In this document: in pieces, positions 16,358-32,020 of the stretch
Numbering within the stretch: the stretch's first letter is position 1
Layout: each line of letters begins with the position of its first letter
Virus record (IMG/VR): IMGVR_UViG_3300027128_000012
Coordinates: 1 to 34,600 of that record
Origin: a virus
Lineage: Duplodnaviria > Caudoviricetes
DNA length: 34,600 nucleotides
Strand: one strand, 5' to 3'
The notes under the pieces: generated by a model
The model's input: the letters and a program-made list of their open reading frames with translations, nothing else
Databases searched by the model: none
Told to the model about the DNA's origin: nothing
Translations under genes and position numbers: made by a program

Positions 16358-16451
16358 TTAATTTTACCTTTATAGTGAGTTGGTAGGTGTATATTAACAC
16401 ATACACCTATGTTTACAAGACATAATATGTTAAAGTTTGTAACCGTCAGTA

Positions 16452-17633
16452 TTAACGGTTAGTAACCTTCTCGATCAATTGAGACTTCATGTCTTCCATC
16501 TTCTTAACCGCTTCAATTCTGGAAACTTCACCTTCCTGCTTGATCTTCTGAACTTCATCAATTGTTTCGATAAGGTTCTTCTGAACATATTCAAGAGTTT
16601 GAATGTCAACCACAGAACGCTCATTAGCCTTCGCCGTGGCAACACTGTTCATCTTCAACAAATCTGCATTTTTCTTCATGATATCGTTAGTCGTGTCGTC
16701 AATCTTGGTTGCAAGTTCAACTGCATTCTTTTGCTCAATCAATGCAATCGCCAGTACAAATTGCTTCTTCCAAGAGGGAATAGTCAATTCAGTAAGATTC
16801 GTAAACTTGTCGATCAGTGTACGGTTGTTACTCTGAATCATGCGAATCATAGGAGCAGTTTGAATTGCCACCATTTGCATAGTCTTCAAATCATGCACAC
16901 GCTTCTTCAAGCGGTCGATAATCCCTGACAAATCGGAAATATTTTGTGCTTCAATGGGATTGGTAGCGGCAGTTGGCGATGCCTTCATTTCTTCAAGTTG
17001 TTGGTTCAATTCTTCAATCTTGACTTCACCAACCAAAATACTAGTGTCGAGATTTTTGTATTCTTCAACGTTGTAAAGATATACATTTTCAAGATTTTGA
17101 ATAGTGCCATTCAAACGATTCTGTGTGACACTAACCTCAGACAGCAACTTTTCAATTTGCTTGGAAAGGGAATCGTATTGTCCAACAATCTTTTCCTTAC
17201 CAACAATAAACTTGTTGATAAGACCACCAATCAGGGGAATCTTCGATCCACCATTAACAAGACCATTGATATTGACTTGCTTGGCAAGGACGACAACTTC
17301 GGTCATCTTATCACCAATACCATCAACATCGGAACTGCGCACATGCTTTAGCATGTCATCAGAGAAACGCACAATCTTTTCACCTGCATCGGAACCAAGC
17401 TTGGTGATAGCAGTTGTTTCGTAAGGATTGAAATTTGTCACTGCATTGGAAACACGCTGCTGCAACTCATTGACATCCATACCAGAGGCAACAAGACGTT
17501 GCATGTTGGCGTCAAAAACCTTTTGTATAATGGCGGAAGTGCCAACATTCTTATCAGTACCAACCACAACCAAGTTTTGATTGGATACTTGTCCTGTTTG
17601 AGTATATGCGGAAACCGGCTTAAACACTGTCAT
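16452..17633 (-). CDS. telA: Toxic anion resistance protein (TelA family)
   Basis: QTAPMIRMIQSNNRTL, TIPSWKKQ, NERSVVDIQTL; start probably MTVFKP after AGGAG. Confidence 0.88.
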   Translation of the reverse strand: MTVFKPVSAYTQTGQVSNQNLVVVGTDKNVGTSAIIQKVFDANMQRLVASGMDVNELQQRVSNAVTNFNPYETTAITKLGSDAGEKIVRFSDDMLKHVRSSDVDGIGDKMTEVVVLAKQVNINGLVNGGSKIPLIGGLINKFIVGKEKIVGQYDSLSKQIEKLLSEVSVTQNRLNGTIQNLENVYLYNVEEYKNLDTSILVGEVKIEELNQQLEEMKASPTAATNPIEAQNISDLSGIIDRLKKRVHDLKTMQMVAIQTAPMIRMIQSNNRTLIDKFTNLTELTIPSWKKQFVLAIALIEQKNAVELATKIDDTTNDIMKKNADLLKMNSVATAKANERSVVDIQTLEYVQKNLIETIDEVQKIKQEGEVSRIEAVKKMEDMKSQLIEKVTNR

Positions 17634-18699
17634 TTTTAGCTCCTGTAGCATTTGACATTTTTTCGAGAAGTTCTTTTTGAATGTTCAACAAATTGTTATA
17701 TTCATTGTTACCATTCATCTTTGAAGAAAAAACAGAAATCATCTGTTGTTTCCATGTTGGTATAACCAACGTAATAATATCGTTTGTTTGGTCAATCAAC
17801 GTCAAGAAATTGTTTTCTTCAAGACGTAATTGAGACATACGCATCAAAATTGTTTGACGAATCAACATCAGATTATGAACACGGCGCTCAAAACGAGCCA
17901 ACGCATCTTGCAAATCTTGAAGTGTCTGTTTCGCAAAAAACTCTACTGCTGTTGTCTGTGACGCCATTTTACTCTTTTCATCGTCAATACGCAACTGCGC
18001 AGCAACAATTAATACAGAAAGCATACGAAACTGTTTGTCCGTCTCCAACTCCACGGCATCAAACTCTGGAATGTGAGACTTTAGCTTAGCCAATGCATTC
18101 TTGCAATTAGCAACTTCTTTATTGATTTCTGCTTCCAAAATGTTATATTCTTCTCGTGTCGTAATAGAACGTGAGAAAAATGACTTTAAAAAACTTTTAT
18201 TGAAAATTGCATCAATGTCAACACGCTTAATTGACGCCATAATCTTATTCAAAGAAGCACGAATGCCTTCCGAAAAAGATGAGTTGACAATCTTTGCCAA
18301 TTTGTTGATTATTTCCTCAGACGAAACATCAGCACCATATTCGGTAATAAAATGGTGGTCAGTAATCTTGATGTCATCACGCATTAATAAAATTCGTGAC
18401 TTTTCAATTGTTGTTAAATCAAAATCACTAAACCCCAATTTAGCCAAAGATTCCGCAATAGCCTTGTTTTCAGAATCATCCAAAACAGCCTTCACCGAAG
18501 GCTTGAGGATTGGTTTAACCTCACGATTTACGGGTAATGGCGCAGAAGGTTGTATAGGCATAACCGGGGGTACAACCGGCTTTGTACTTTCAAGCTGGCG
18601 CAAGCGATCTTGCAAGGAATTGCCTGCCGGTTTGGGGTCAGCAATAGTTTGAGGTTGTGTTTTTGATACTACACCCCCAAATGTTTTGATTTGACTCAT
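17620..18699 (-). CDS. Divergent TelA-like protein
   Basis: ITEYG, RFERRVHNL, LVIPTWKQQ parallel the adjacent TelA; Pro-rich N-terminus. Confidence 0.7.
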   Translation of the reverse strand: MSQIKTFGGVVSKTQPQTIADPKPAGNSLQDRLRQLESTKPVVPPVMPIQPSAPLPVNREVKPILKPSVKAVLDDSENKAIAESLAKLGFSDFDLTTIEKSRILLMRDDIKITDHHFITEYGADVSSEEIINKLAKIVNSSFSEGIRASLNKIMASIKRVDIDAIFNKSFLKSFFSRSITTREEYNILEAEINKEVANCKNALAKLKSHIPEFDAVELETDKQFRMLSVLIVAAQLRIDDEKSKMASQTTAVEFFAKQTLQDLQDALARFERRVHNLMLIRQTILMRMSQLRLEENNFLTLIDQTNDIITLVIPTWKQQMISVFSSKMNGNNEYNNLLNIQKELLEKMSNATGAKNDSV

Positions 18700-19960: not shown

Positions 19961-19977
19961 ATTTTCACCTTTTACTT

Positions 19978-20050
19978 TGGCCCCTAAGAGATGCATCGAA
20001 CATCTATACGTTTGCGCAAACGTGTTTTAAGCCAGTTAAACTACTTAGGG
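19978..20050 (-). ncRNA. tRNA-like RNA with shortened palindromic anticodon arm
   Basis: CCCTAAG/CTTAGGG-G-CCA, D arm, T arm AGATG-TTCGATG-CATCT, but only 18 nt between D and T arms. Confidence 0.8.
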
Positions 20051-20057
20051 GTTCAAC

Positions 20058-20192
20058 TGAATGGATTTTTTATCGTTGCTCTACCAATTGAGCTACACCC
20101 CCAATAAAGCTAAACTTCAATTGGCGGGGGTGGATAGGACTCGAACCTACAACACACGGCTTTGGATGCTTTAAAATTGCTGTTACCATTCA
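20058..20192 (-). ncRNA. ACAGCAA-scaffold element 1: circularly permuted tRNA-Trp(CCA)-like
   Basis: TGAATGG-TAACAGCAA ... AT CCA AA GCCGT..T arm..CACCCCC G CCA, 19-nt spacer, GGGGGTG TA GCTC..GAGC A ACG ... CCATTCA. Confidence 0.85.
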
Positions 20193-20196
20193 AACC

Positions 20197-20805
20197 TTAC
20201 TGTGTTGACAAACGCAACACAGTTTTATACAAACCCGGATTGATCTTCAATGCCTCTGGTACGATAACATTGCGACAAAATGACCTTTGATTAGAAGAAT
20301 CATGGTTTGTCGGGTCTTCAATCCAAATCAATTCATGTTTCTTTGCATATGCATAAACTTCACCCTTTGTCAAATGAAGAAAAGGACGACGCAAATTGTT
20401 ACGATGTGATGAAATAAATCTTACATTCCCCTTAATAGAGGACATAAGATATTCTTCGACCTGATCATCTAACGTATGTGCAAGGTAAACATCACAAGCA
20501 TACGCACGATAAATCTTTTGGCGAAAATTGCGCCAGTTATGTTCTACATTACTTTCATACGCAACATCAATATGATGTACGTCGATTTCAATGCCATACT
20601 CTTTAGCAATATCACGAACCAATTGCTCACAATCATCGTCATACGGATTTCCCGGATTATGATTAATGTGAACTACCCGAACGTTATTATAACCAACCAT
20701 AAAATGTAACAAAGCAACAGAATCTACGCCACCAGAACAAGCAACCACACAAGTTTGGTCGGTAAAAGGTTTAATCACTTTGGTACGAATGTTAGCCATT
20801 ATCAC
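20197..20805 (-). CDS. tilS: tRNA(Ile)-lysidine synthetase, catalytic domain only
   Basis: ACSGGVDS PP-loop, VHINH, AHTLDDQVE, RPFL, WIEDPTN; lacks the C-terminal domains of enterobacterial TilS. Confidence 0.9.
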   Translation of the reverse strand: MIMANIRTKVIKPFTDQTCVVACSGGVDSVALLHFMVGYNNVRVVHINHNPGNPYDDDCEQLVRDIAKEYGIEIDVHHIDVAYESNVEHNWRNFRQKIYRAYACDVYLAHTLDDQVEEYLMSSIKGNVRFISSHRNNLRRPFLHLTKGEVYAYAKKHELIWIEDPTNHDSSNQRSFCRNVIVPEALKINPGLYKTVLRLSTQ

Positions 20806-20823
20806 ACCTAAAATAAAAAATTA

Positions 20824-20903
20824 CTGTAGTTAAGTACCTTTATCCAGAGTTAACGTGTGTCTCTGGTTAAGAGTCCCCTCACTAAAGATACATTTAACAA
20901 CAG
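20824..20903 (-). ncRNA. Candidate three-way-junction RNA between tRNA(CAT) and tilS
   Basis: Outer stem CTGTTGTTAAATGTATCTTTA / TAAAGGTACTTAACTACAG enclosing GAG-GGGA-CTC and CCAGAG-11 nt-CTCTGG. Confidence 0.5.
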
Positions 20904-20908
20904 CCTTT

Positions 20909-20985
20909 TGGTGCTTCCGACTGGACTTGAACCAGTGACCTACCGATTATGAGTCGGTTGCTCTAACCACCTGAGCTAAGGAAGC
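20909..20985 (-). tRNA. tRNA(CAT), likely Ile2
   Basis: GCTTCCT..ACCGA CT CAT AA TCGGT..ACCA; body resembles enterobacterial Ile2 and lies directly upstream of tilS. Confidence 0.9.
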
Positions 20986-21005
20986 ATCGTTGTCTTGATG
21001 TGGTC

Positions 21006-21034
21006 ATTATACCGCTTTACAACAACCACGTCAA
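21006..21034 (-). promoter_or_regulatory. sigma70 promoter for tRNA(CAT)-tilS unit
   Basis: TTGACG-17 nt-TATAAT. Confidence 0.8.
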
Positions 21035-21042
21035 GAACTTTT

Positions 21043-21312
21043 TTACTTTACATCATCAGGTGCACAACAATTGAACGCATAGGCAATAGCACCGTTTTCA
21101 TGCTCTTTCAACTTAGCCTTGAACTCTTCCGGAGACATTTCCTTTAAACGTGTTGCAACACGTTCCAATGCATCCTTTTGTATTTGTGTCATCCCAATAT
21201 CATAACGTGTGGGAACATAACCACATTCGATAAAAGTCTGTTCAAGTTCATCATCAGACATGTTATCCAGATTTTCCAGAGCCTCTTCAAGCATAGCCTT
21301 AATGCGTGACAT
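21043..21312 (-). CDS. Hypothetical protein with internal duplication
   Basis: ALENLDNMSDDELEQ / ATRLKEMSPEEFKA. Confidence 0.7.
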   Translation of the reverse strand: MSRIKAMLEEALENLDNMSDDELEQTFIECGYVPTRYDIGMTQIQKDALERVATRLKEMSPEEFKAKLKEHENGAIAYAFNCCAPDDVK

Positions 21313-21313
21313 A

Positions 21314-21910
21314 TCAAACTTCCTCTAAGCCGTATGGTACAAGAATATTTTCCAATTCTACCACCTTACGCTCACCATTGTCAAACATCACTTCAATTAC
21401 ATTTGATGGCATATTGTAATCATAACGATAGCGATTACATACCTTCACATACTCTTGTGATGGTTTATACCATACGGTGTCAACACAGATAGAACTTGCA
21501 TAAAAAGCTTCAAAACCATGTTCATCCCATTCACCATCCAAGTCCACTTGGCTTATAATAGAAAAATCTTCATGTGGTGAACGCAATGACATAAAAAAGT
21601 CATATGTGTTTTTTGCCATTTCCATTGATATGAAATCAAACTCTTCTGCATACTTTCTTCCACGTTGAAATGAAACCCCAATAAGAGTACCATCCAAAAA
21701 GTACACTGCGAGGCCAACCATAGTATCAGTACACAGCCAAGGTGTTACCCAATATGCGGTAATATGTTCCTTTATTTTATCATAATAATCATAATGATTA
21801 AAATTAATATTCAATGCTGTTGTAATAGCATCAATATCAATAGATTTTTCATTACGACTTGTTTTCTTGACATTTTGTGCCAGTTCAATGAGTTTCATCA
21901 TTCGTCCCAA
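21314..21910 (-). CDS. Hypothetical phage protein
   Basis: WLCTDTMVGLAVYFLDG motif; operon context. Confidence 0.75.
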   Translation of the reverse strand: MGRMMKLIELAQNVKKTSRNEKSIDIDAITTALNINFNHYDYYDKIKEHITAYWVTPWLCTDTMVGLAVYFLDGTLIGVSFQRGRKYAEEFDFISMEMAKNTYDFFMSLRSPHEDFSIISQVDLDGEWDEHGFEAFYASSICVDTVWYKPSQEYVKVCNRYRYDYNMPSNVIEVMFDNGERKVVELENILVPYGLEEV

Positions 21911-22296
21911 AAAATTTGTTTGAAATTAAGACTTTTTTCATAATTGTCCTTGGTGTTACAGGACATCATAATGTCATAAATTTCTTCATCAGTTCGCTTC
22001 AAAGAAATGCGAATTGGAACCTGCGACCACTTGTTGAAACACTTCTTAAAATCAACAGCCAAAAAGCCCAAACAGTTAATATAATTGTAATCGCTAGTTC
22101 CAGTCAAAGCACATAAACCCTTATGGTTTTCAATCCACAATAAAACTACAGGATGGTCAATACCTTCTACCTTTTGGATTTCAGTGGTTAATTCACATTT
22201 GCATTTCTTTTTAATTAGAAAATTATATAGTGATTCAACACGCAAGTTATCTTCGGCAAGTTTATGTAGAATCTGGGTTTTACTCAGTTTAGACAT
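21898..22296 (-). CDS. Hypothetical protein
   Basis: 132-aa ORF overlapping its neighbours. Confidence 0.7.
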   Translation of the reverse strand: MSKLSKTQILHKLAEDNLRVESLYNFLIKKKCKCELTTEIQKVEGIDHPVVLLWIENHKGLCALTGTSDYNYINCLGFLAVDFKKCFNKWSQVPIRISLKRTDEEIYDIMMSCNTKDNYEKSLNFKQIFWDE

Positions 22297-22789
22297 TTTT
22301 ATTCTCTAACAGGTTTTTCAAGTGATCAATTGGCTTTAAGTCTTGTATAGCCAAATTGTAACAATCCGCCCTCACAACAAAGTTATTAGACGGGTCTATT
22401 TGCCCTTTTTGCATAAACTTCGCTTTTTTAAAGTATGCCTCTTTTGGCATCCATCCCAAAATCCAACAAGTATCCTGACATATGCGGGTAAAGACGTAAG
22501 CATTACACTTTTGTTTCGTATTATATGCCGCTATCGAACACTCATAATGAGGCTTTGGTGGTGATGTACACTCTTTGGTCTTAACGTCAAGTTTAGCACC
22601 ATGCATCATTATATCATAGTCATATGTATTTTCAACACATGCATTAAGATAATTTGCAACAATTTGTTCCCCCATGAACCCAACAAGATTGCCTTCGCCT
22701 TGACGAATAGAGTTGTTCAACCTACCCATTTCATCAGCTTTCTCTTGTGCCCTTTCACGTATATCTTGTGTTATTTTAATTTCTATCAT
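22289..22789 (-). CDS. PD-(D/E)xK nuclease-like phage protein
   Basis: GFMGEQIV, YDYDI, LDVKTK. Confidence 0.65.
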   Translation of the reverse strand: MIEIKITQDIRERAQEKADEMGRLNNSIRQGEGNLVGFMGEQIVANYLNACVENTYDYDIMMHGAKLDVKTKECTSPPKPHYECSIAAYNTKQKCNAYVFTRICQDTCWILGWMPKEAYFKKAKFMQKGQIDPSNNFVVRADCYNLAIQDLKPIDHLKNLLENKNV

Positions 22790-23103
22790 TATTTGCCATT
22801 CAACATCACAATACTTTCATTTATGCGGGTTATCTTTTCAAACAATAAGTTCTTACGGGTAGACACATACCATTCAACTTCTTCTTTTGAGGCGGGCGCA
22901 AAATTATAAGAGAATGTATCAATTATTATGTTAGTAAAATGTATTTTATCCTCACCATCAGTAATCAATGGATCGTATACATTCATTCTAACATTATTGA
23001 AAACGCATGACACAATATACAACTTATTAATTTGTAATGCCTTGTTACCAAAGGTGTCTACGCACCTTACAAGTTGTTCTTCTTGGAACACTGTGGAGTT
23101 CAT
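22789..23103 (-). CDS. Hypothetical protein
   Basis: 104-aa ORF, stop/start overlap. Confidence 0.65.
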   Translation of the reverse strand: MNSTVFQEEQLVRCVDTFGNKALQINKLYIVSCVFNNVRMNVYDPLITDGEDKIHFTNIIIDTFSYNFAPASKEEVEWYVSTRKNLLFEKITRINESIVMLNGK

Positions 23104-23104
23104 A

Positions 23105-23443
23105 TCAAATTTTATCTCGGATTTCTTTTAATACTTCAACCAATTTCTCATCCGCAAAACATTCCCTCATAGATTTCATTTCTTCACCACCAGAATAAAA
23201 TGCAATCATCTTGTCAATTTCAACTAGAAGAGGATTATCAACAACCTTGGCGGATTCTAGACATGTAATCATGGTAGTAACATAATCATATATTGAATCT
23301 GTATCAGCACGACTTTGCAAACTAATAAGACTATGTAAAGCACGTTTCACAAAAATATCATGAAAAACTTGACTACCATTGTCAGAAATCCAACAAAGAT
23401 CAGACTCCGGAATATCAATTTCAATAACAATATGTTTTTTCAT
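23105..23443 (-). CDS. Hypothetical protein
   Basis: Likely start MKKHIVIEI after AAGGTG. Confidence 0.65.
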   Translation of the reverse strand: MKKHIVIEIDIPESDLCWISDNGSQVFHDIFVKRALHSLISLQSRADTDSIYDYVTTMITCLESAKVVDNPLLVEIDKMIAFYSGGEEMKSMRECFADEKLVEVLKEIRDKI

Positions 23444-23444
23444 A

Positions 23445-23642
23445 TCAAGACACCTTAGCGTGTGAGGACAAAGCCTTTTCAGCCATTTTAGCACATGAGA
23501 ATCCACGACTATGACCAAGACCATAACCGAACTCAACAATGCTCTTTAAAGCCTGTTCCAGTTCGGTTATGCGTTTTGATTCGGGTGTAATATTACGCCA
23601 TTTAGATACTGCTTCTACAAACAGTTTATCATCATTGGTCAT
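23445..23642 (-). CDS. Small hypothetical protein
   Basis: 65-aa ORF after promoter 23710-23738. Confidence 0.6.
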   Translation of the reverse strand: MTNDDKLFVEAVSKWRNITPESKRITELEQALKSIVEFGYGLGHSRGFSCAKMAEKALSSHAKVS

Positions 23643-23709
23643 TTTTGATTCTCATGCAAATTTGTTAACTTGAACGAGATATACACATGGTAATCTCTAC
23701 TATGCGTAC

Positions 23710-23738
23710 AGTTTACCATGTTAGGGAGAAGGTGTCAA
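23710..23738 (-). promoter_or_regulatory. sigma70 promoter
   Basis: TTGACA-17 nt-TAAACT with TG. Confidence 0.75.
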
Positions 23739-23742
23739 GGAT

Positions 23743-23889
23743 TTAGCGGGGATATCCTATAGGATGTGATTCAGCCAAGTCACCCATAATATCAGCAGAA
23801 CTTGGATTTTCTTCTTTATTGTCTTCTGGAATTACAAAAACAGTTTCGCCATTCTTTGTTCTTTCCAAATATTCAGATGCAGTGATCAT
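23743..23889 (-). CDS. Small 48-aa hypothetical protein (not in ORF track)
   Basis: GAGGT SD; MITASEYLERTKNGETVFVIPEDNKEENPSSADIMGDLAESHPIGYPR*. Confidence 0.55.
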   Translation of the reverse strand: MITASEYLERTKNGETVFVIPEDNKEENPSSADIMGDLAESHPIGYPR

Positions 23890-23901
23890 TACTTTTACCT
23901 C

Positions 23902-23977
23902 TGGTGCCGCCAGTGGGACTCGAACTCACAACCTACGGATTACGAAACCGTTGCTCTACCACTTGAGCTATAGCGGC
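23902..23977 (-). tRNA. tRNA-Thr(CGT)
   Basis: GCCGCTA/TGGCGGC-ACCA; ACGGT TT CGT AA TCCGT. Confidence 0.93.
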
Positions 23978-23991
23978 ATATGCGTAATTTC

Positions 23992-24324
23992 TTACGCTAA
24001 TGAATCAAGGATTTCTCCCAATTCCGTTTTACAATCAGTATATGCATAATAGTCCTCTGCATACAGTTTTTTCAATTGTTCGACAGAAGCGGACTCCATA
24101 TCAAATTGACCTTCCAAACCATAGCACGAACAATGTGATGCATATACTGTGAATAACTCACCAGATTCAGTATGCTTTAGAAGCACGAAAGACCAGCCCT
24201 CGTAATACCCTATTGCATATGATGCTAGTAATATTTCATAACCATTCAATCTATCCGCAGTGATATTAAACTCTCGCAAAACATCATCTAGCGAATTAAA
24301 ATCGTGTAAAAATATAGTATTCAT
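23992..24324 (-). CDS. Hypothetical phage protein
   Basis: YYEGWSFVL...ASHCSCYGLEGQF; start MNTIFLH after GAGG. Confidence 0.75.
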   Translation of the reverse strand: MNTIFLHDFNSLDDVLREFNITADRLNGYEILLASYAIGYYEGWSFVLLKHTESGELFTVYASHCSCYGLEGQFDMESASVEQLKKLYAEDYYAYTDCKTELGEILDSLA

Positions 24325-24375
24325 GTTAATTTCCTCTGTGGTTGATAAATCAAACACTTACACATTGGAAATCGG

Positions 24376-24474
24376 TGCTACCTGCCTGACTCGAACAGGC
24401 CACCTGCGGGTTATCATTACTGAAACCTTGTCTCAGAAACTAAGCCGCTGCTCTACCAGATGAGCTAAGGTAGC
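24376..24474 (-). tRNA. tRNA with 26-nt insertion in anticodon loop (intron-like or pseudo-tRNA); identity Thr(AGT) or Ile(GAT) unresolved
   Basis: Perfect GCTACCT/AGGTAGC acceptor, D and T arms; 33 nt between anticodon stem strands; ends ACCG. Confidence 0.8.
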
Positions 24475-24584
24475 ATTTCTAGAGTTATCGTACCTAGATC
24501 GGACATCACCCACGGGATATTAAGAGTATGACTCTCTTCTTATCATGCATATCCTGCACTATGCGGTATGATGGCCGCAAGTAT

Positions 24585-24902
24585 TCAATCTTTATATAGT
24601 ACAATAAAATCATCAGTCATGCAACAATACGATGATTTCATTAATGGTTCTTTTGTAACAAAATCCACAAATGTTTCTGTATTATATGGATTATAATAAG
24701 CCTTTTTCAAGAAACCTGCAATTGGCTGGTTTTCTATTATATATCCTTTAACATACGCATGCACATTTTTAGTCTTTGTTAATAATACCTTTTCACGACC
24801 TTTTGCGTTAACAACATATGAAACATTTCTTAAAAACAAAGGTTCATAAGAATGTGCTACCACCAAACCATTTTGGCGTATCGACCAACATTTCTTAGTC
24901 AA
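24585..24902 (-). CDS. Conserved hypothetical phage protein
   Basis: WSIRQ, KNVHAYVKG, YNPY; frame stays open upstream through PVQVYRNL, so the true start is uncertain. Confidence 0.7.
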   Translation of the reverse strand: MTKKCWSIRQNGLVVAHSYEPLFLRNVSYVVNAKGREKVLLTKTKNVHAYVKGYIIENQPIAGFLKKAYYNPYNTETFVDFVTKEPLMKSSYCCMTDDFIVLYKD

Positions 24903-24933
24903 ATTACGATAAACTTGTACTGGTTTAGTTTTA

Positions 24934-25176
24934 TCAAAAGGATAACGTATTCGAATTTTTAATACCTTCTTTGATTTTAGTCATAATGGCATCACCAAAT
25001 ATTTCCATTATATTGATGCCATCAATTTTTGCATCTTGTGCAAGTTCAACATTGAAAGCACCATTAATTACAAAATTTATTACTGGTGTAAATGTTTCGT
25101 TATCAATACTTTTATATAAGTTTACATGAATATTTTCGTTTAGATAATTTTCTAATTTTTGTTTTATATCACTCAT
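24934..25176 (-). CDS. Small hypothetical protein (paralog of next gene)
   Basis: MSDIKQKLENYLNENI...IDNETFTP. Confidence 0.7.
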   Translation of the reverse strand: MSDIKQKLENYLNENIHVNLYKSIDNETFTPVINFVINGAFNVELAQDAKIDGINIMEIFGDAIMTKIKEGIKNSNTLSF

Positions 25177-25191
25177 TTACTATTATCACTT

Positions 25192-25434
25192 TTAATTATT
25201 TAAAGTAGCATTGGACAATTTATCTAAAATTGTCTTCCCAACAATTTCTTTACCATTTGCGGAAATTACAGTTAAATCTTGTAATATTTCAATATTAAGT
25301 TTACATGATATATCAAAATGCAAAGTTGGTATAAAAATATCATCATCAATCTTTCGTTCAACTTTAACTATTTTTATATTTTCATTCAAATACTCTTCGA
25401 TTTGTGCTGTTAATTGTTGTTTTAAATCGCTCAT
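25192..25434 (-). CDS. Small hypothetical protein (paralog of previous gene)
   Basis: MSDLKQQL...EYLNENI...IDDDIFIP. Confidence 0.7.
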   Translation of the reverse strand: MSDLKQQLTAQIEEYLNENIKIVKVERKIDDDIFIPTLHFDISCKLNIEILQDLTVISANGKEIVGKTILDKLSNATLNN

Positions 25435-25442
25435 TTTTATTC

Positions 25443-25871
25443 TCAATCTTTACCTAGTGTATAATCATGTGGTACAATGTCATCACGATTTGGAAAAGAA
25501 TCTTCTTCAATTCGTGGTTCTGTATTACGAATAAATTCAGACAACTTATAGTAAAGCCATTGTGGGAAATAACCATCTTCATCACGATTATATCCAACTT
25601 CAATTGCGGCCTTTACTAGTTCATAACCATTATAAGCATTCAAATATAATGAGTTTTCAAAATCTTCTGGCAAAATGTATAGCTTTTCATTTTGTTCGGC
25701 TGTCATTTTCGGTGTTGTTTCCCACACAAAAGTAGGATCATTGCACTGAATCATACCCCAATCACCAACCTTCATAATATCACCGTCACGGCGGGCACGA
25801 ATTAGATACCAACCCGGCAATACTTCACCAAAATACAAAGGGTTGACCAAACATTGCTCACACATTAGCAT
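25443..25871 (-). CDS. Hypothetical protein
   Basis: 142-aa ORF beginning MCEQC. Confidence 0.7.
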   Translation of the reverse strand: MLMCEQCLVNPLYFGEVLPGWYLIRARRDGDIMKVGDWGMIQCNDPTFVWETTPKMTAEQNEKLYILPEDFENSLYLNAYNGYELVKAAIEVGYNRDEDGYFPQWLYYKLSEFIRNTEPRIEEDSFPNRDDIVPHDYTLGKD

Positions 25872-25901
25872 TCTCTTTATGTAGGATATGTATATTTTAA
25901 A

Positions 25902-25977
25902 TGGTGAGTCCGGTGGGTTACGATCCCACTACCTACTGGTTAAAAGCCAGTTGCTCTGCCGATTGAGCTACGAACCC
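25902..25977 (-). tRNA. tRNA-Lys(TTT)
   Basis: GGGTTCG..ACTGG CT TTT AA CCAGT..ACCA; atypical T loop ATCGTAA. Confidence 0.9.
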
Positions 25978-26001
25978 ATATGCCGTAAAAACGGCAGCAA
26001 C

Positions 26002-26107
26002 AGGAAAAATTGTTCCCTTTACCAAGTTGGGAACATATCAAAAACGTTGCCGAAGCTAGTTTCCGATTGGAGTCGAACCAATAATATTGATTTGCTGTTA
26101 TTTTCCT
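26002..26107 (-). ncRNA. ACAGCAA-scaffold element 2: permuted tRNA elbow with no anticodon arm
   Basis: AGGAAAA-TAACAGCAA ... ATTGG TTCGACT CCAAT, CGGAAAC/GTTTTTG closed by GC-TTCG-GC, GTTCCC-AACTTGGTAAA-GGGAAC ... TTTTCCT. Confidence 0.8.
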
Positions 26108-26116
26108 AAAATCAAC

Positions 26117-26255
26117 TGGATGGAATTTTCTATACGCTGCTCTACCTGATTGAGCTACACCCCCAATGAAACATTACAACAATCGGTGGGGGCGACAGGA
26201 TTTGAACCTGTAACCAACGGCTTATCATGCTAGAAATGGTTGCTGTGACCATCCA
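26117..26255 (-). ncRNA. ACAGCAA-scaffold element 3: circularly permuted tRNA-Ile(GAT)-like
   Basis: TGGATGG-TCACAGCAA ... AT GAT AA GCCGT..ACAGG TTCAAAT CCTGT CGCCCCC ACCG, spacer, GGGGGTG TA GCTC..GAGC A GCG ... CCATCCA. Confidence 0.85.
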
Positions 26256-26278
26256 AAACCTTAAAAATCTTATAACAC

Positions 26279-26394
26279 TGGATAGAGTTTATCTTGTTCT
26301 ACCGATTAAACTATACGCCTTACGACGCAGCCGGACTCGAACCGACACCTTTGGCTTTTACAGAGCTACGATATTTTTTTGCTGTTACTATCCA
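26279..26394 (-). ncRNA. ACAGCAA-scaffold element 4: permuted tRNA-Tyr(GTA)-like with acceptor stem capped by GNRA loop
   Basis: TGGATAG-TAACAGCAA ... GCT CT GTA AA AGC..GTCGG TTCGAGT CCGGC TGCGTC-GTAA-GGCGTA TA GTTT AATCGGTA GAAC ... CTATCCA. Confidence 0.85.
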
Positions 26395-26431
26395 AAACTA
26401 AGTATTACTACCACAACTTACAAAAGTTGTT

Positions 26432-26506
26432 TGGCACTGCGTAGGGGAATCGAACCCCTGTGATCGAGTAGACAGCCCGACATAATAACCTCTATATGAA
26501 CGCAGT
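26432..26506 (-). tRNA. tRNA-Asp(GTC)
   Basis: ACTGCGT/ACGCAGT-GCCA; TCGGG CT GTC TA CTCGA. Confidence 0.9.
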
Positions 26507-26509
26507 ATA

Positions 26510-26713
26510 TCACTTAACACGTTGCATCACAAGTGGTTTATCACCCAAGTAAAACGTGTCACAACTACCATCTTCATAAACCAGATAAATCCCAGCCCAT
26601 GAAGATTTTACATCTTTGATGATTTTTCCATTATGTCTAATTTTGGAATATTTCATCATATTCAACAAACATTCACCACTTTCCCCACTTATGGGTACAT
26701 TCATATTAGTCAT
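26510..26713 (-). CDS. Small hypothetical protein
   Basis: 67-aa ORF between RNA elements. Confidence 0.55.
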   Translation of the reverse strand: MTNMNVPISGESGECLLNMMKYSKIRHNGKIIKDVKSSWAGIYLVYEDGSCDTFYLGDKPLVMQRVK

Positions 26714-26725
26714 GTTTTTCTCAAC

Positions 26726-26781
26726 AGGTTGTATTTTTTCTTTTTTTGAAAATAAAAAATTAAAATTGCTGTCAACAACCT
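26726..26781 (-). ncRNA. ACAGCAA-scaffold element 5: minimal form, loop triplet TTC (Glu-like)
   Basis: AGGTTGT-TGACAGCAA-TTTTAATTTTTTA TT TTC AA AAAAAG..-ACAACCT. Confidence 0.75.
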
Positions 26782-26792
26782 AAAACCTTATG

Positions 26793-27062
26793 CTATTCTT
26801 TTGGCAGACCATTTACAGTCAAATACTCAAGGATAGCATTTGAAAACTTCTCCGAATGATACATCACAAATGAATTGTAATCCTCATTCTCCCAACGCCA
26901 AACACCATTTTCTAGAACAGCCATTCCTTTCATATGTGTGTCTTCTTGTCCATTCTTACGGGTTTCTTCAATTTCAGCACAATCATCACTAAAATATACA
27001 ATTTCCAATCCTTCACCCATTACCTCAAAATAATAGGTTATTACTTTATTATATGCTGTCAT
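26793..27062 (-). CDS. Hypothetical protein
   Basis: 89-aa ORF. Confidence 0.65.
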   Translation of the reverse strand: MTAYNKVITYYFEVMGEGLEIVYFSDDCAEIEETRKNGQEDTHMKGMAVLENGVWRWENEDYNSFVMYHSEKFSNAILEYLTVNGLPKE

Positions 27063-27078
27063 TTTAAGTGCCTTTGTT

Positions 27079-27155
27079 TGGTTGGGTGAGTGGGATTTGA
27101 ACCCACGATTCTCCGGGTAAGAGCCGGGAACTTTAAGCCTCTAAGTTACCACCCA
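27079..27155 (-). tRNA. tRNA-Lys(CTT)
   Basis: TGGGTGG/TCACCCA-ACCA; CCCGG CT CTT AC CCGGA. Confidence 0.88.
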
Positions 27156-27166
27156 ATGATTTTTAC

Positions 27167-27220
27167 AGGTTGTATTTTTCTTTTTTCCAAATAAAAAATT
27201 AAAATTGCTGTTAACAACCT
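27167..27220 (-). ncRNA. ACAGCAA-scaffold element 6: minimal form, loop triplet TGG (Pro-like)
   Basis: AGGTTGT-TAACAGCAA-TTTTAATTTTTTA TT TGG AA AAAAG..-ACAACCT; near-identical to element 5 except for the triplet. Confidence 0.75.
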
Positions 27221-27226
27221 AAAACT

Positions 27227-27466
27227 TTAAGAAAACCAATCAGGCTTTCTAAATCTGTCAGTGAAGACATATTCATCTACTTCTTCACTCATGTCAATGT
27301 CATATGCATCAGGCCAATATGTCATCAACTGTTGCATATCATCAACATAAGCTACAATAACCGAATGACCATATAATGTTCCACCAGTACACCAGTAAGG
27401 GTGCTTAATCGGCCACACTACAGGACGATAATCTTCAACTGGAACATAAAATCGTGCACGATACAT
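27227..27466 (-). CDS. Conserved hypothetical phage protein
   Basis: DYRPVVWPIKHPYWCTG...FTDRFRKPDW. Confidence 0.75.
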   Translation of the reverse strand: MYRARFYVPVEDYRPVVWPIKHPYWCTGGTLYGHSVIVAYVDDMQQLMTYWPDAYDIDMSEEVDEYVFTDRFRKPDWFS

Positions 27467-27559
27467 TTTTATCTCACTGTTTATATTTTGTTGTGAAATT
27501 AAACCATGAGTATATTTTCACAACATTTTCTAAACACACATTTAAGCATGTTTAATTAA

Positions 27560-27766
27560 TCGGTAGGCACGACACTAGCTTGCACCCAATCAGTCCACCA
27601 GCACTAAACTGTGCCTTTCTCTAGCACCCCACCATAAAGGAGGGAATGAGGACTAACGGTTTCTACACATTATCGTATTGTATGGGATTAGCCGCATCCA
27701 CAACGTCTGTGAACTTAGTACGCATAAGTCACAACTTTTAACACCACTACTGGCTTCCAATGGTGT
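27560..27766 (-). ncRNA. Candidate structured non-coding RNA
   Basis: GC-richer stretch with no ORF-track entry and several hairpins, starting at the 3' end of tRNA(CAT). Confidence 0.4.
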
Positions 27767-27843
27767 TGGTATCTCAAGCTGGGTTCGAACCAGCGACCTG
27801 CCGATTATGAGTCGGATGCTCTAACCACCTGAGCTATTGAGAT
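27767..27843 (-). tRNA. tRNA(CAT), Met or Ile2
   Basis: ATCTCAA/TTGAGAT-ACCA; TCCGA CT CAT AA TCGGC. Confidence 0.9.
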
Positions 27844-27851
27844 ATCACGTA

Positions 27852-28172
27852 TCACATGGTCACATATTCAATCGGAATATTGTTTTTCTTGCAATAATCA
27901 ATTTCATATGATACACCAGATGAATCTTCCCATCCGTCAATCATCAAGACAACCATTTTATTACATCTGCTCAACAAAGTCAAGGAATAATTTTCCCAAA
28001 ATGCCGAATCAGAAGGTACAGGATGTCTCATCACCACTTCATGTGCCATCAACGGCGTGACAGGAACATGACCCTGCATCATCAGAGCCGCAAAGTGTTT
28101 GTATACAGAACCCATACGTTTCTCAATTACGGATTTGTCTGGATGTGAATATGGTGCTGATATATAAATCAC
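27852..28172 (-). CDS. DUF1937 / nucleoside deoxyribosyltransferase-like fold protein
   Basis: IYISAPYSHPD, GWEDSSGVSYEI. Confidence 0.8.
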   Translation of the reverse strand: MIYISAPYSHPDKSVIEKRMGSVYKHFAALMMQGHVPVTPLMAHEVVMRHPVPSDSAFWENYSLTLLSRCNKMVVLMIDGWEDSSGVSYEIDYCKKNNIPIEYVTM

Positions 28173-28204
28173 TTTACAACTCTCAATTCGTTTTCGATGG
28201 TGCC

Positions 28205-28232
28205 ATTATATCACATCTACACCATCTGTCAA
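28205..28232 (-). promoter_or_regulatory. sigma70 promoter internal to tRNA region
   Basis: TTGACA-16 nt-TATAAT with TG. Confidence 0.75.
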
Positions 28233-28244
28233 CTAATTTCTAGG

Positions 28245-28317
28245 CACTATGTACGAGAATTGAACTCGTGTCTCCGGCGTGACAGGCCAGTATACTCGAC
28301 CACTGTACTAACATAGT
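28245..28317 (-). tRNA. tRNA-Asp(GTC), no encoded CCA
   Basis: ACTATGT/ACATAGT-G-CCT; CTGGC CT GTC AC GCCGG. Confidence 0.88.
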
Positions 28318-28320
28318 ATT

Positions 28321-28494
28321 GTAGTTAGCTGGTTCCTAACTTTTCACTACTTGTTCTTTACGAACTGGCCGTGAAAGGCGCTACCCAGACCACATCTGGA
28401 TTTAACGAGCGGGGTGGCTTTTGCACACTCGCTTTAAAGTTTTTAGCCAATCTTACGATTGTTTCCATCTAGTGCCTCGTGGCGGCAAACTTTA
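28321..28494 (-). ncRNA. Candidate structured non-coding RNA
   Basis: GC-richer spacer with multiple short helices including CAATC-GTAA-GATTG and CCAGA-TGTGG-TCTGG. Confidence 0.4.
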
Positions 28495-28502
28495 TACTAG
28501 AC

Positions 28503-28575
28503 CTCCCAGAACAGGACTCGAACCTGTGACCCGTTGATTAACAATCAACCGCTCTACCAACTGAGCTATCTGGGA
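28503..28575 (-). tRNA. tRNA-Asn(GTT), no encoded CCA
   Basis: TCCCAGA/TCTGGGA-G; GTTGA TT GTT AA TCAAC. Confidence 0.92.
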
Positions 28576-28581
28576 ATTATA

Positions 28582-28768
28582 TTACCACTTAATTTTTCTA
28601 CCATTTTCCCAACCGGGTTCTAATACAGAATCCTTTGGTACTTTTTTACATTTTTTCATCTCTTTGTTATGAACCCATATAACCGTCATCTAAATCATCG
28701 GTTTTATGTTTTCCTATGTAGATTTTACCATTTTTCAAGTTAGTAATCTTGTATATTGTATAATACAT
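28582..28768 (-). pseudogene. Internally deleted GIY-YIG (Seg-like) homing endonuclease
   Basis: MYYTIYKITNLKNGKIYIGKHKTDDLDDGYMGS* joined out of frame to IWVHNK...PGWENGRKIKW*. Confidence 0.85.
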
Positions 28769-28844
28769 GTAAGTGCCATTATGACTGTTATTCTTACATG
28801 TATATACTTTGTTCGATACCTACCCTAGAATAAGTATCTAAATG

Positions 28845-28927
28845 CTCTCAGAAGTGGGATCGAACCACTGCACCTTACGGTGTCCTCCGGTTAACAGCCG
28901 GGAACATTACCACTCTGTCATCTGAGA
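28845..28927 (-). tRNA. tRNA-Asn(GTT) with long variable arm, no encoded CCA
   Basis: TCTCAGA/TCTGAGA-G; CCGG CT GTT AA CCGG; 16-nt variable region with CACC-GTAA-GGTG. Confidence 0.85.
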
Positions 28928-29028
28928 ATCACAACATCAAATCGAACTCATCCTGCTATATTTTCCGCTGTTCTCCAATAGTTTCCAATAATTGATCAGA
29001 TTATTTTTCACTATCTTCCTTGATGTTA

Positions 29029-29104
29029 TGGTGCTGTTAGAAGGAATCGAACCCTCATTACCGGACTACAAAACCGGCATAATAAGCCTTTATATGATAA
29101 CAGC
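29029..29104 (-). tRNA. tRNA-Thr(TGT)
   Basis: GCTGTTA/TAACAGC-ACCA; CCGGT TT TGT AG TCCGG. Confidence 0.9.
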
Positions 29105-29108
29105 ATAT

Positions 29109-29185
29109 TGGTAGGTCTACTCGGAATTGAACCGAGAACCGCCGAATTATGAGTTCGGTGCTCTAACCACTTGAGCTATAGACCT
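29109..29185 (-). tRNA. tRNA(CAT), likely Ile2
   Basis: AGGTCTA/TAGACCT-ACCA (Ile-like AGG start); CCGAA CT CAT AA TTCGG. Confidence 0.9.
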
Positions 29186-29195
29186 ATCGCAATTT

Positions 29196-29271
29196 TGGTG
29201 CTCGGTGTTGGACTCGAACCAACATCGCTCTCCTTGTAAGGGAGACGTATAACCTCTCTACGCAACCGAGC
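29196..29271 (-). tRNA. tRNA-Val(TAC)
   Basis: GCTCGGT/ACCGAGC-ACCA; TCTCC CT TAC AA GGAGA. Confidence 0.92.
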
Positions 29272-29277
29272 AATAAC

Positions 29278-29337
29278 AGGAAACATTTTACGTTTTTCAT
29301 TAAAAGTGAAATGTATAAATTTTGCTGTTAGTTTCCT
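29278..29337 (-). ncRNA. ACAGCAA-scaffold element 7: isolated Lys(TTT) anticodon stem-loop
   Basis: AGGAAAC-TAACAGCAA ... TTTCA CT TTT AA TGAAA ... GTTTCCT. Confidence 0.85.
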
Positions 29338-29747: not shown

Positions 29748-29776
29748 ATTATATAGTGTTTTTTCGTCAATGTCAA
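29748..29776 (-). promoter_or_regulatory. Consensus sigma70 promoter (proximal) of tRNA operon
   Basis: TTGACA-17 nt-TATAAT with A-tract upstream. Confidence 0.9.
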
Positions 29777-29837: not shown

Positions 29838-29866
29838 ATTCTACACATAGTTTTAGCTGTTGTCAA
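29838..29866 (-). promoter_or_regulatory. sigma70 promoter (distal) of tRNA operon
   Basis: TTGACA-17 nt-TAGAAT; shares AAGTGCTTGACA with the proximal promoter. Confidence 0.8.
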
Positions 29867-29910
29867 GCACTTGTTGTAAATATTATATATTTTTTCACAT
29901 GGTAATAAAA

Positions 29911-30633
29911 ATGAAGAGTTACAGTGAGTTCTTAAACGAAAGTTTTAATATATTCAAGAAACATGATAAAATAGTTCCAACTAATAAAGCAGAAGAACAT
30001 CTGGATTTTGACTATAGTCATCACAATGAACATTTAAAACCGTTTGACGAAGAACATTTTCATCAACATGCACCATCTATAAATGGTAATTTACAGAAAA
30101 AAGCATTAGATGCATATAAGCATGATTCATACAACATGAATGGTTCATTATGGGGCGGTAAAAATGCAGTTCATAATGACGACCATCATATTGAACATGT
30201 TTCGGCTTTATTAAAATCAACACCGGCAGCAAAAAAAGACTTTCATGTTTATACTGGCGTCAAAGCTGATAGTGAAAGGCTTAAAGGTGATTTGCATATT
30301 CCGGCATTCACTTCTGCATCTGCGGATCATAGAATAGCTGGTTTGTTTTCATCAGGAAAAACAGTAGAAAAAATGAAAACAGAAAGCGGAAACGAGAAAG
30401 ATGTTAATGTAAGACATGTTATTAAAATACATGTTAAAAAAGGACAACAAGTTGGTGGTTATGTTGGTGATATTGGCCAGCGACAACATGAAAGAGAGTT
30501 TTTAATAAACAAGGGACACACATTACATTTTACAGGAAAAATTGAAGATCATGTTGAACAAGACAGCACATTTGGCGGAACTCCAAAAATAGTAAGAGTA
30601 CACCACGCAACCATAACACCGGATGATGAATAA
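29911..30633 (+). CDS. ADP-ribosyltransferase 1 (VIP2/Alt-Mod-like R-S-E clade)
   Basis: MKSYSEFLNE start; YKHDSYNMNGSL, FHVYTG, AFTSAS, HEREFLI; TAAATA at 29877-29882. Confidence 0.85.
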   Translation: MKSYSEFLNESFNIFKKHDKIVPTNKAEEHLDFDYSHHNEHLKPFDEEHFHQHAPSINGNLQKKALDAYKHDSYNMNGSLWGGKNAVHNDDHHIEHVSALLKSTPAAKKDFHVYTGVKADSERLKGDLHIPAFTSASADHRIAGLFSSGKTVEKMKTESGNEKDVNVRHVIKIHVKKGQQVGGYVGDIGQRQHEREFLINKGHTLHFTGKIEDHVEQDSTFGGTPKIVRVHHATITPDDE

Positions 30634-31310
30634 TGAGTAAATTTAGAGCTTTAATTGAAGGAAAAATAAAACCTGAAAAACATATAAGTTTTTTAGATAT
30701 AAGTGATGACAGAAAACGTGAAGATGATTTAATAGCATCTCATTTACCAAATGTTTCTAATACATCACATAGCAACGCCATCAGATCATATAGTGCTAGT
30801 TCTAAAGGTCTAAACCGTTATCTATGGGAAAACAAACACGATGCAAATCACAAGAATAGTTCATTAGACGACGACGCAAAAACTCTTTCAGATATTCTAA
30901 AAACAGCACCCGCTGCCAAAGAGGATTTCCATGTTTACACTGGAATAAACTCAAAAAGAAATAAAATTGAAAAAGGGGACTTACACATTCCGGCTTTCAC
31001 CTCAACATCAACAAAAGATTTTGTGGCAGGTGACTTTGGAGTAAAATATCACTCTTTAGAAGACCACCCAAACAAGAATGGTGATATACAACCGCATATG
31101 ATTCATCATATATTAAAGATACATGTCAAAAAAGGACAACAGGTTGGTGCGTATATTGCACCCCATAGTAACTATAGCGACGAACATGAGTTCTTAATAA
31201 ATAAAAATCACACGATACATGTTTCCGATGATTATGAAGACCATCCGGGAGAGGGCAATAGAATTTTCAGAATACACCATGCAACAATATCAATGGGGAA
31301 CGATAAATGA
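30633..31310 (+). CDS. ADP-ribosyltransferase 2
   Basis: YSASSKGLNRYL, FHVYTG, AFTSTS, DEHEFLI. Confidence 0.85.
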   Translation: MSKFRALIEGKIKPEKHISFLDISDDRKREDDLIASHLPNVSNTSHSNAIRSYSASSKGLNRYLWENKHDANHKNSSLDDDAKTLSDILKTAPAAKEDFHVYTGINSKRNKIEKGDLHIPAFTSTSTKDFVAGDFGVKYHSLEDHPNKNGDIQPHMIHHILKIHVKKGQQVGAYIAPHSNYSDEHEFLINKNHTIHVSDDYEDHPGEGNRIFRIHHATISMGNDK

Positions 31311-32020
31311 AAACTTTTAAAGAACATTTAAACATGATATATTCTTTAAATGAGCAAGTGGTAAATCCACCTATAAAATTTGATCACAATGACAATGAAG
31401 ACCCTGATAAAGAGCTTTTCTTCATACATCATGCGCCTGAAACAAAAGACAATAATCAAATCGACGCTATTAAAAGTTATTGCGACCACTCAACAAGTAT
31501 GAACAAATCTTTATGGAAGAAAAAGTTTGACTTCATAGAAGATGAAAAAAATGCGTCATTACTAACAGATGCCCTTAAAACAGCACCTGCCGCAAAAGAA
31601 GATTTTCATGTTTATACAGGGGTGAATGCGAATAGGAATGAAATTAAAAAAGGAGATTTACATATTCCAGCCTTTACATCAGCGTCATACTCCCCAATAA
31701 TAGCAGGAAGATTCGTCAGACCTATTGAAAATAGGCACACGGAAGAGTACCATCCGGATGAAGATGGAAATATGGTTAAACATACTGTCCATCATATATT
31801 AAAGATACACGTGAAAAAAGGACAACAGGTTGGTGCGTATATCGCCGATCATTCTTTTGCACCACACGAAAAAGAGTTTTTGATTAATAAAGGGCATACC
31901 ATACATATTAGCGGGGATTATGAAGACCATCATAATCCACCAGAAGAAAATGGGTATAGTAGAACAAGAAGAATATATAGAATACACCATGCAACCATAA
32001 CACCGGATGATGATAAATGA
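31307..32020 (+). CDS. ADP-ribosyltransferase 3
   Basis: MKTFKEHLN; FHVYTG, AFTSAS, HEKEFLI. Confidence 0.85.
   Translation: MKTFKEHLNMIYSLNEQVVNPPIKFDHNDNEDPDKELFFIHHAPETKDNNQIDAIKSYCDHSTSMNKSLWKKKFDFIEDEKNASLLTDALKTAPAAKEDFHVYTGVNANRNEIKKGDLHIPAFTSASYSPIIAGRFVRPIENRHTEEYHPDEDGNMVKHTVHHILKIHVKKGQQVGAYIADHSFAPHEKEFLINKGHTIHISGDYEDHHNPPEENGYSRTRRIYRIHHATITPDDDK

Follow-up and report, generated by a model that had tools for sequence, protein, structure and literature searches.

What is the purpose of seven small elements of common design that lie within the tRNA array of a T4-like phage? The stretch of DNA considered here, 34,600 nucleotides (nt) long and the whole of its IMG/VR record (IMGVR_UViG_3300027128_000012; G000), is referred to below as the window; it derives from such a phage, as judged from matches to gp32, gp59, and gp33, and 16 tRNAs are called on its minus strand by ARAGORN. 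Each of the seven elements, here termed handle RNAs, begins with one strand of a 7-bp terminal stem, continues after two bases with the unpaired heptanucleotide ACAGCAA, carries a tRNA-like cargo, and ends with the complementary strand of the stem. Judged from sequence, they are members of an uncatalogued, widespread family that resembles Y RNAs. Genomic linkage and a predicted protein fold make it probable that they bind the DUF2828 protein of the phage, predicted to form a ring, through stem and ACAGCAA. That they are released, bound by DUF2828, and act as tRNA bait is the reading that we favor with little more than even confidence.

All seven ACAGCAA sites on the minus strand of the window are preceded, at a distance of two bases, by one strand of a Watson-Crick 7-bp stem whose complement lies downstream and runs into GT; none of the five plus-strand sites has such a closure. 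Of the 110 closures of this kind that the window contains for heptamers of any sequence, 7 belong to ACAGCAA and at most 1 to each other heptamer. The bare count of ACAGCAA is marginal (12 in the window versus 6.1 ± 2.5 in shuffled sequences). RNAfold predicts the terminal stem in the minimum free energy and the centroid structures of all seven elements, with modest z-scores (−1.2 to −2.5). An earlier sequence-only reading had placed the seven elements correctly (Table 1), its 3′ coordinates stopping at the stem complement and the GT being two further bases. Its plan further included a T next to the stem and a terminal GT; both hold in the window, the latter in 7/7 copies, but the T occurs in only 91 of 201 distinct family elements and the tail is GG in Felixounaviruses. 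What is fixed is therefore the 7-bp stem, two spacer bases, and ACAGCAA, in most cases with a G behind the stem. The low T count also led us to drop the base after the stem as a mimic of tRNA U8.

The cargo had been read as tRNA-derived in every copy. In the Trp and Ile copies the anticodon stem is complete, with 5 bp of which 2 lie on one side and 3 on the other side of a handle inserted between tRNA positions 29 and 30. In the Trp copy the order is anticodon loop, T arm, 7-bp acceptor (with an encoded NCCA and a 19-nt linker), and D arm, and in the Ile copy, also with a 7-bp acceptor, CCG replaces CCA. The Tyr cargo qualifies less well as a permuted whole tRNA, with an anticodon stem of 3 bp only, an acceptor sealed by a short loop, and no CCA. 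The anticodon-less elbow does follow the order T-acceptor-D, and the Lys copy is a clear anticodon arm with a perfect 5-bp stem and 7-nt loop. The Pro and Glu loops, tentative from the outset, fail the anticodon-arm test, although the anticodon triplet is the main difference between the two copies, which are otherwise nearly identical.

Relatives support the view of a modular noncoding RNA family in which the stem covaries, the motif hardly changes, and the tRNA-derived cargo is exchangeable. A pattern scan of IMG/VR, covering 3 of its 64 parts, returned 126 loci, in which 110/586 ACAGCAA motifs close a stem compared with 17/2429 for twelve permuted motifs. The 201 distinct elements display 85 different stems, the commonest first stem pairs being A-U (155/201) and G-C (149/201), and stems swapped between elements close in only 85/3877 trials. 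As pair counts come from elements that were chosen for pairing, the evidence for the stem consists of the swapped-stem and strand controls only. Among 123 bacterial or archaeal loci chosen by the same pattern, 0/260 motifs close under the strict rule; relaxed 6–7 bp handles with other tails are present in L346, L400, and L302 and were left out of the count. In GTDB genomes a protein scan of low sensitivity found nothing. The sequence-only reading could assign the elements to no Rfam family, and indeed none reaches its gathering score on them in Rfam 15, where gathering-level matches are tRNAs only; neither Rfam 15 nor the open-access literature searched contains the family.

Clustering of the proteins encoded near the elements yields one dominant family, DUF2828 plus DUF7788 (PHROG 850). 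DUF2828 is encoded in 31/42 element-positive loci longer than 4 kb versus 9/39 others, with the window counted as a miss and some loci being duplicates. The linkage is also seen from the protein side, in a non-circular test on 80 viral loci fetched for DUF2828 alone, in which 107/270 ACAGCAA sites on the strand of the gene close versus 1/123 on the opposite strand. Altogether 52 of these 80 loci contain an element, and in the gp32-selected control 0/175 sites close and 0/80 loci have one. Element-positive DUF2828 clusters number 29/40 at 90% protein identity and 15/19 at 80%. The median distance from element to gene is 300 nt (34/51 at ≤500 nt), and in the pattern-selected loci 68/68 elements are situated on the strand of the gene. 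Because the family sits beside the DUF2828 gene, the handle RNAs are likely partners of this protein, which is predicted to be Ro60-like in fold.

No piece of DUF2828 is encoded in the window or in the sister record G001 of 31.7 kb, whose completeness is rated at only 14%, so that most of this phage's genome is unseen. An overlapping contig, L210, is 99.87% identical with the window across 10 kb and extends past its end; L127 and L210 represent the same phage. On L210 a gene for DUF2828 plus DUF7788 (by Pfam) is located about 3.4–4.9 kb beyond the window end on the same strand. Three relaxed-motif copies of the element lie 330–530 nt upstream of it and a fourth further off, giving this phage at least 11 copies (those on L210 counted by the relaxed rule). 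The window copies are more than 8 kb from the gene and the three extra copies 0.3–0.5 kb.

Although this DUF2828 protein gives no Pfam TROVE hit, its AlphaFold model (predicted local distance difference test score, pLDDT, 84.7) has only Ro60/TROVE chains as top structure matches (E 1.7e-9). VIA-align places Ro60/TROVE at Z 18.6 with a root mean square deviation of 4.8 over 397 aligned residues; its ten best rows are all Ro60/TROVE (Z 12.9–18.6, about 400 residues aligned), and the first non-Ro60 row has Z 11.2. A model of a relative also returns Ro60/TROVE structures first. The predicted model matches a HEAT-repeat ring closed by a vWA domain, and the DxSxS motif is invariant. By sequence, the family profile yields no more than weak vWA/TROVE hits against the PDB (E 0.002–0.06), and identity to solved Ro60s is 11–17%. 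Homologs of DUF2828 are encoded in 703 cultured phage records.

Elements are found near the DUF2828 gene in five of the six cultured phages examined, namely MsGreen, LP-125, and mio (3 each), and S13 and Bas63 (2 each). Pfam TROVE is absent from all five complete genomes searched (S13, mio, MsGreen, LP-125, and Ah1) and present in 2/14 control genomes. Bas63 gp130 shares 38% identity with the DUF2828 protein of this phage (hidden Markov model E 3e-152); like the gene of this phage, its gene heads a tRNA cluster, and two handle RNAs, at about 82.24 and 82.78 kb of Bas63, lie between the annotated tRNAs. The gene g130, labelled DUF2828, counters the Ppl defence system and, among 14 sheets, is needed only on the Ppl host (−2.9 to −3.7 versus +0.6 to +0.9 with empty vector; PhageMaP preprint, PMC11482910). 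Its authors call gp130 Ro60-like and guess that Y RNAs are among the tRNA genes; the available text suggests the annotated tRNAs as candidates and identifies no RNA (PMC11482910). A hypothetical coding sequence of Bas63, bas63_0137, overlaps a handle RNA on the opposite strand; like mio_111 and MsGreen gene 55, which also overlap handle RNAs, this open reading frame (ORF) is probably spurious.

Of known RNAs, the bacterial YrlA family (RF02553) is closest in layout. Chen et al. (2014; PMC4201824) define it by the motif GNCGAA, the order T-acceptor-D, and a same-strand TROVE gene at a distance of no more than about 4 kb. As in YrlA, a terminal stem is formed from the 5′ and 3′ ends, the tRNA-like domain with its closed acceptor runs T-acceptor-D (in 4/7 window copies and 42 distinct copies among relatives), and several RNAs per genome are encoded near a gene with predicted Ro60 fold. 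Unlike YrlA, none of the seven elements has GNCGAA or CGAA near its 5′ end, where ACAGCAA takes its place, the best scores (42, 33.4, and 27.8 bits) stay far below the gathering score of 69 bits, many family members are only 55–75 nt long with just an anticodon arm, and the neighboring protein is DUF2828/DUF7788 instead of a Pfam TROVE Ro60 (Rsr). None of the 22 phages in Table S2 of Chen et al. is among the six cultured DUF2828 phages examined, and ACAGCAA does not occur in the supplements of that article that were searched (PMC4201824). ROT/TROVE proteins occur in some jumbo phages (Iyer, 2021; PMC7824862), and the Ro60 of phiLo binds the CGAA RNAs Yrl1/2 and PNPase (PMC12135203).

The handle, in turn, nearly matches Class I RNAs of Dictyostelium (RF01414), which have a short terminal stem, an 11-base motif, an AAG start, and a CUGU end, and are described from dictyostelids only, phages going unmentioned in the available part of the article (Kjellin et al., 2021; PMC7919456). 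Common to both are a short end-joining stem with an adjacent unpaired motif, which ends in ACAGCAA in the Rfam consensus, an AG start, a CUGU end, a variable A/U-rich middle, and, for the short copies, a size of 55–65 nt. The two shortest window copies align to the Class I model with 25 and 22.3 bits, short of the gathering score of 41.5, and they have 2 nt between stem and ACAGCAA where the Rfam consensus has 3. Class I genes have a DUSE promoter 60 nt upstream, whereas the phage elements lie in a tRNA operon with sigma-70-like promoters (DUSE was not searched), and their cargo is tRNA-derived, unlike that of Class I, whose reported partner is the RRM protein Rnp1A. Since the layout is that of YrlA and the handle nearly that of Class I, the distance from known kinds is smaller than it first seems. 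The family would work like a Y RNA system, yet by the tests that define them it is neither YrlA nor Class I. It would amount to a second Ro60/Y RNA system, one whose protein subfamily and binding motif are not those of the first.

The cargo of the relatives bears on what such a system might do. Among 90 short elements, 32 contain a 5-bp stem with a 7-base loop of the form Y-U-NNN-R-N, compared with 2.6 ± 1.7 after shuffling; one is a T loop, leaving 31 anticodon arms. Anticodons with U34, which are common targets of defence nucleases, make up 22/31 of these arms versus 560/1239 canonical tRNAs of the same loci (p 0.006, the samples not being independent). In 14 of the 31 the anticodon repeats that of a canonical tRNA in the same locus, and this phage, too, has canonical tRNAs for Lys(UUU), Pro(UGG), and Glu(UUC) in addition to its mimics.

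We therefore envisage, as the favored reading, that small phage RNAs are likely cut from the transcript of the tRNA cluster as discrete products, that their 7-bp terminal stem and unpaired ACAGCAA are likely bound directly by the DUF2828 ring, and that each complex likely displays a tRNA elbow and/or an anticodon arm as non-decoding bait for host defence enzymes that recognize tRNAs. Protein binding and a decoy role, both among the functions first considered, fit the data best; a candidate partner is now at hand, binding and bait themselves being inferences. Contigs from RNA runs speak for this reading as well. The runs containing this phage are riverine metagenomes and metatranscriptomes, 11 of the 24 listed being RNA, and the DUF2828 gene is covered by contigs of about 99% identity in 3/3 RNA runs examined; several elements are also spanned by RNA contigs. 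Among the joints listed there was no circle or spliced element, although contigs cannot exclude either; two irregularities of one contig each, the joint 24584-26279 and the loss of 13 bases at 20109, are not interpretable.

Several observations weigh against this reading. From RNA contigs one can read neither the ends nor the strand nor the level of a transcript, and a single campaign may have produced all the runs. Clustered at 70% identity, the DUF2828-selected set is reduced to 5 clusters, of which 2 have elements; 28/80 DUF2828 loci, many of them short, are without element by the strict rule; and Aeromonas phage Ah1 has a DUF2828 gene and no element in the 19 kb examined. Gene and RNAs both reside in tRNA clusters, and their linkage may in part reflect this shared neighborhood, which is only partly controlled because gp32 loci are not tRNA clusters. 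As to the cargo, 58/90 short elements, the Pro and Glu copies of the window included, fail the anticodon-arm test, and the U34 bias comes from related, AT-rich sequences. Most directly, T7 was rescued on Ppl by gp130 in the absence of these RNAs, and insertions in bas63_0137 were costless there (+0.55 to +0.73), with no consistent defect on the other 13 sheets and single negative replicates on Ec86 and RADAR2 (PMC11482910). bas63_0137 overlaps one Bas63 element; the insertion position in the ORF is not specified, and the second element was intact. The one known activity of gp130 thus does not need the RNAs.

The counter to Ppl by gp130 without the RNAs would suit a reading that shares the protein partner and dispenses with bait: the RNAs might bind DUF2828 as classical Y RNAs do, as a gate of the ring or a tether to host PNPase, the tRNA-like cargo serving stability or docking. 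Such is the described role of YrlA and Yrn1, which regulate the Ro60 ring and link it to PNPase (PMC4201824), and of Yrl1/2 with the phiLo Ro60 and PNPase (PMC12135203). Actinobacterial YrlAs keep an anticodon-like loop too, according to supplementary alignments (PMC4201824), and the short cargos that lack a clean anticodon arm point in the same direction. We consider this reading rather unlikely all the same, as it leaves unexplained why one phage carries 11 copies with different anticodons, why perfect arms are in excess, and why U34 is preferred.

A clearly less probable view is that the long copies are precursors of working tRNAs in which the handle would be a splicing or processing signal, matured by removal of the handle, ligation of the ends, opening of the acceptor loop by RNase P, and addition of CCA. 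The rebuilt anticodon stems and 7-bp acceptors of the Trp and Ile copies agree with it, and for Trp, with its NCCA, maturation to a tRNA could in principle occur. Canonical tRNAs for Trp, Tyr, and Ile(GAU) are missing from the calls made for the window and its 10-kb extension, but the genome is mostly unseen, and in S13 the permuted Tyr element duplicates a canonical tRNA-Tyr. In circularly permuted tRNA genes of algae and archaea the 3′ half is encoded ahead of the 5′ half; here neither a fixed junction nor a bulge-helix-bulge motif was seen, there is an extra conserved handle, and most copies are without CCA or tRNA body. A bacterial precedent for such processing is the YrlA of M. smegmatis, which is cut by RNase P and receives CCA (PMC4201824). 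Among the relatives, however, the break point slides from element to element, NCCA is encoded in only 8/42 permuted copies, the acceptor is sealed by ≤6 nt in 23/42, and about 90/201 elements are short and devoid of a tRNA body. In 28 long elements with T before D the anticodon stem has 5 bp in 11, is partial in 3, and is absent in 14, and in 4/201 elements, with D ahead of T, the handle replaces the acceptor stem. Display of tRNA surfaces agrees with this pattern better than maturation into working tRNAs does.

That the handle might be a minimal, protein-free ribozyme or circularization signal, as the sequence-only reading had also considered, found no support and is very improbable: the juxtaposed 5′ and 3′ ends and seven near-invariant nucleotides would suit such a function, but the elements lack even a sub-threshold match to any ribozyme family, neither the T next to the stem nor the terminal GT is constant, the corresponding motif of Class I RNAs is reported to be unstructured (PMC7919456), and a strong link to one protein family would not be expected. 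Decayed tRNA-gene duplications or chance repeats without function, to which the AT-rich, variable cargo and modest folding z-scores might point, have a negligible chance and are already contradicted by covariation and spread, with 85 different stems each pairing their own partner, strand specificity in unrelated phage groups, and the null controls.

Table 1. Handle RNAs and other features of the window, of contig L210, and of Bas63 (L419); positions refer to the window unless another sequence is named.
Feature	Position	Strand	Remarks
Handle RNA, permuted tRNA-Trp(CCA) cargo	20056..20192	−	motif 20177-20183; YrlA 33.4 bits, sub-threshold
Handle RNA, T arm/acceptor hairpin/D arm cargo without anticodon	26000..26107	−	motif 26092-26098
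Handle RNA, permuted tRNA-Ile(GAU) cargo	26115..26255	−	motif 26240-26246; YrlA 42 bits, sub-threshold, model positions 23-88
Handle RNA, permuted tRNA-Tyr(GUA)-like cargo	26277..26394	−	motif 26379-26385; YrlA 27.8 bits, sub-threshold
Short handle RNA, U/A-rich hairpin, tentative Glu(UUC) loop	26724..26781	−	motif 26766-26772; Dictyostelium Class I 25 bits, sub-threshold
Short handle RNA, U/A-rich hairpin, tentative Pro(UGG) loop	27165..27220	−	motif 27205-27211; Dictyostelium Class I 22.3 bits, sub-threshold
Short handle RNA, Lys(UUU) anticodon stem-loop	29276..29337	−	motif 29322-29328; directly after canonical tRNA-Lys(UUU)
Putative sigma-70 promoter, perfect consensus	29748..29776	−	heads tRNA array holding the elements; consensus match only
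Putative second sigma-70 promoter	28205-28232		consensus match only
DUF2828+DUF7788 gene	L210:13472-14977		Pfam
bas63_0137, hypothetical coding sequence	L419 16782-16910 (Bas63 ~82.78-82.91 kb)	opposite to handle RNA	
tRNA-shaped gene, CCA end, odd anticodon loop	~19969-20043	−	right after Trp element
TilS N-terminal domain, stand-alone	20197-20805	−	between tRNA(CAU) 20909-20985 and Trp element
tRNA-Gln call	24374-24474	−	enlarged anticodon/variable region
HDV-like ribozyme match	28434-28501	−	directly 3′ of tRNA-Asn 28502-28576
RlaP-type nucleotidyltransferase	11485-12690		
Abbreviated Ter module	15335-18699	−	
Four tandem Alt/Mod-like ADP-ribosyltransferase genes	29860-32676	+	
ART-PolyVal gene	33230-34081	−	
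Alanyl-tRNA synthetase-like protein	L210 9625-10392	−	overlaps window right end
Permuted two-piece tmRNA	L210 16925-17268	−	
Candidate large noncoding RNA	L210 ~17270-18600	−	

The phage has no near kin among the sequences compared: the best gp32 relatives show just 47–48% identity, the ADP-ribosyltransferase (ART) protein gave none, and BLASTN of the 26–27 kb cluster against cultured phages returned tRNA matches only. Further features of the tRNA region include the stand-alone TilS domain (116 bits versus an NCBIfam cut-off of 93.6), which likely serves to make a phage tRNA-Ile2. ARAGORN and Rfam both missed the tRNA-shaped gene, and the tRNA-Gln call has an enlarged anticodon/variable region of about 100 nt. 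An HDV-like ribozyme match below threshold (30.1 bits, E 0.02) lies where a theta ribozyme would fit. Outside the array, the window encodes an RlaP-type nucleotidyltransferase, a Ter module reduced to a TerC-like and two TelA genes, and a block of ADP-ribosyltransferase genes that has almost no cover in RNA runs though the DNA run covers it, a weak hint only. On L210, a protein of 255 aa that is similar to the N-terminal portion of alanyl-tRNA synthetase has its gene next to four tRNA-Glu genes, with a Sir2 gene nearby. The two-piece tmRNA of L210 (118.9 bits; the betaproteobacterial tmRNA match is sub-threshold) has an ACAGCAA just ahead of the resume codon, without a closing stem. The adjoining region of about 1.3 kb, with no long ORF and several T-loop hairpins, is partly covered by contigs from RNA libraries, matches nothing in Rfam, and is a candidate for a large noncoding RNA.

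For DUF2828, a family encoded by hundreds of cultured phages and with a published counter-defence phenotype, for which no RNA is known, the handle RNAs are candidate ligands and their handle is a candidate binding motif. Bas63, which has two of them and grows on E. coli K-12, is a test system at hand. It is possible, though doubtful at present, that they represent a second, independent Ro60/Y RNA system widespread in phages, in which a ring with an exchangeable library of RNAs that display chosen anticodons would be programmable bait against tRNA-cutting immunity and the handle would be the same as that of the social-amoeba Class I RNAs. The shared handle predicts a DUF2828-type partner for the Class I RNAs of Dictyostelium. 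If the bait role is true, the handle RNAs would be a new phage answer to anticodon nucleases.

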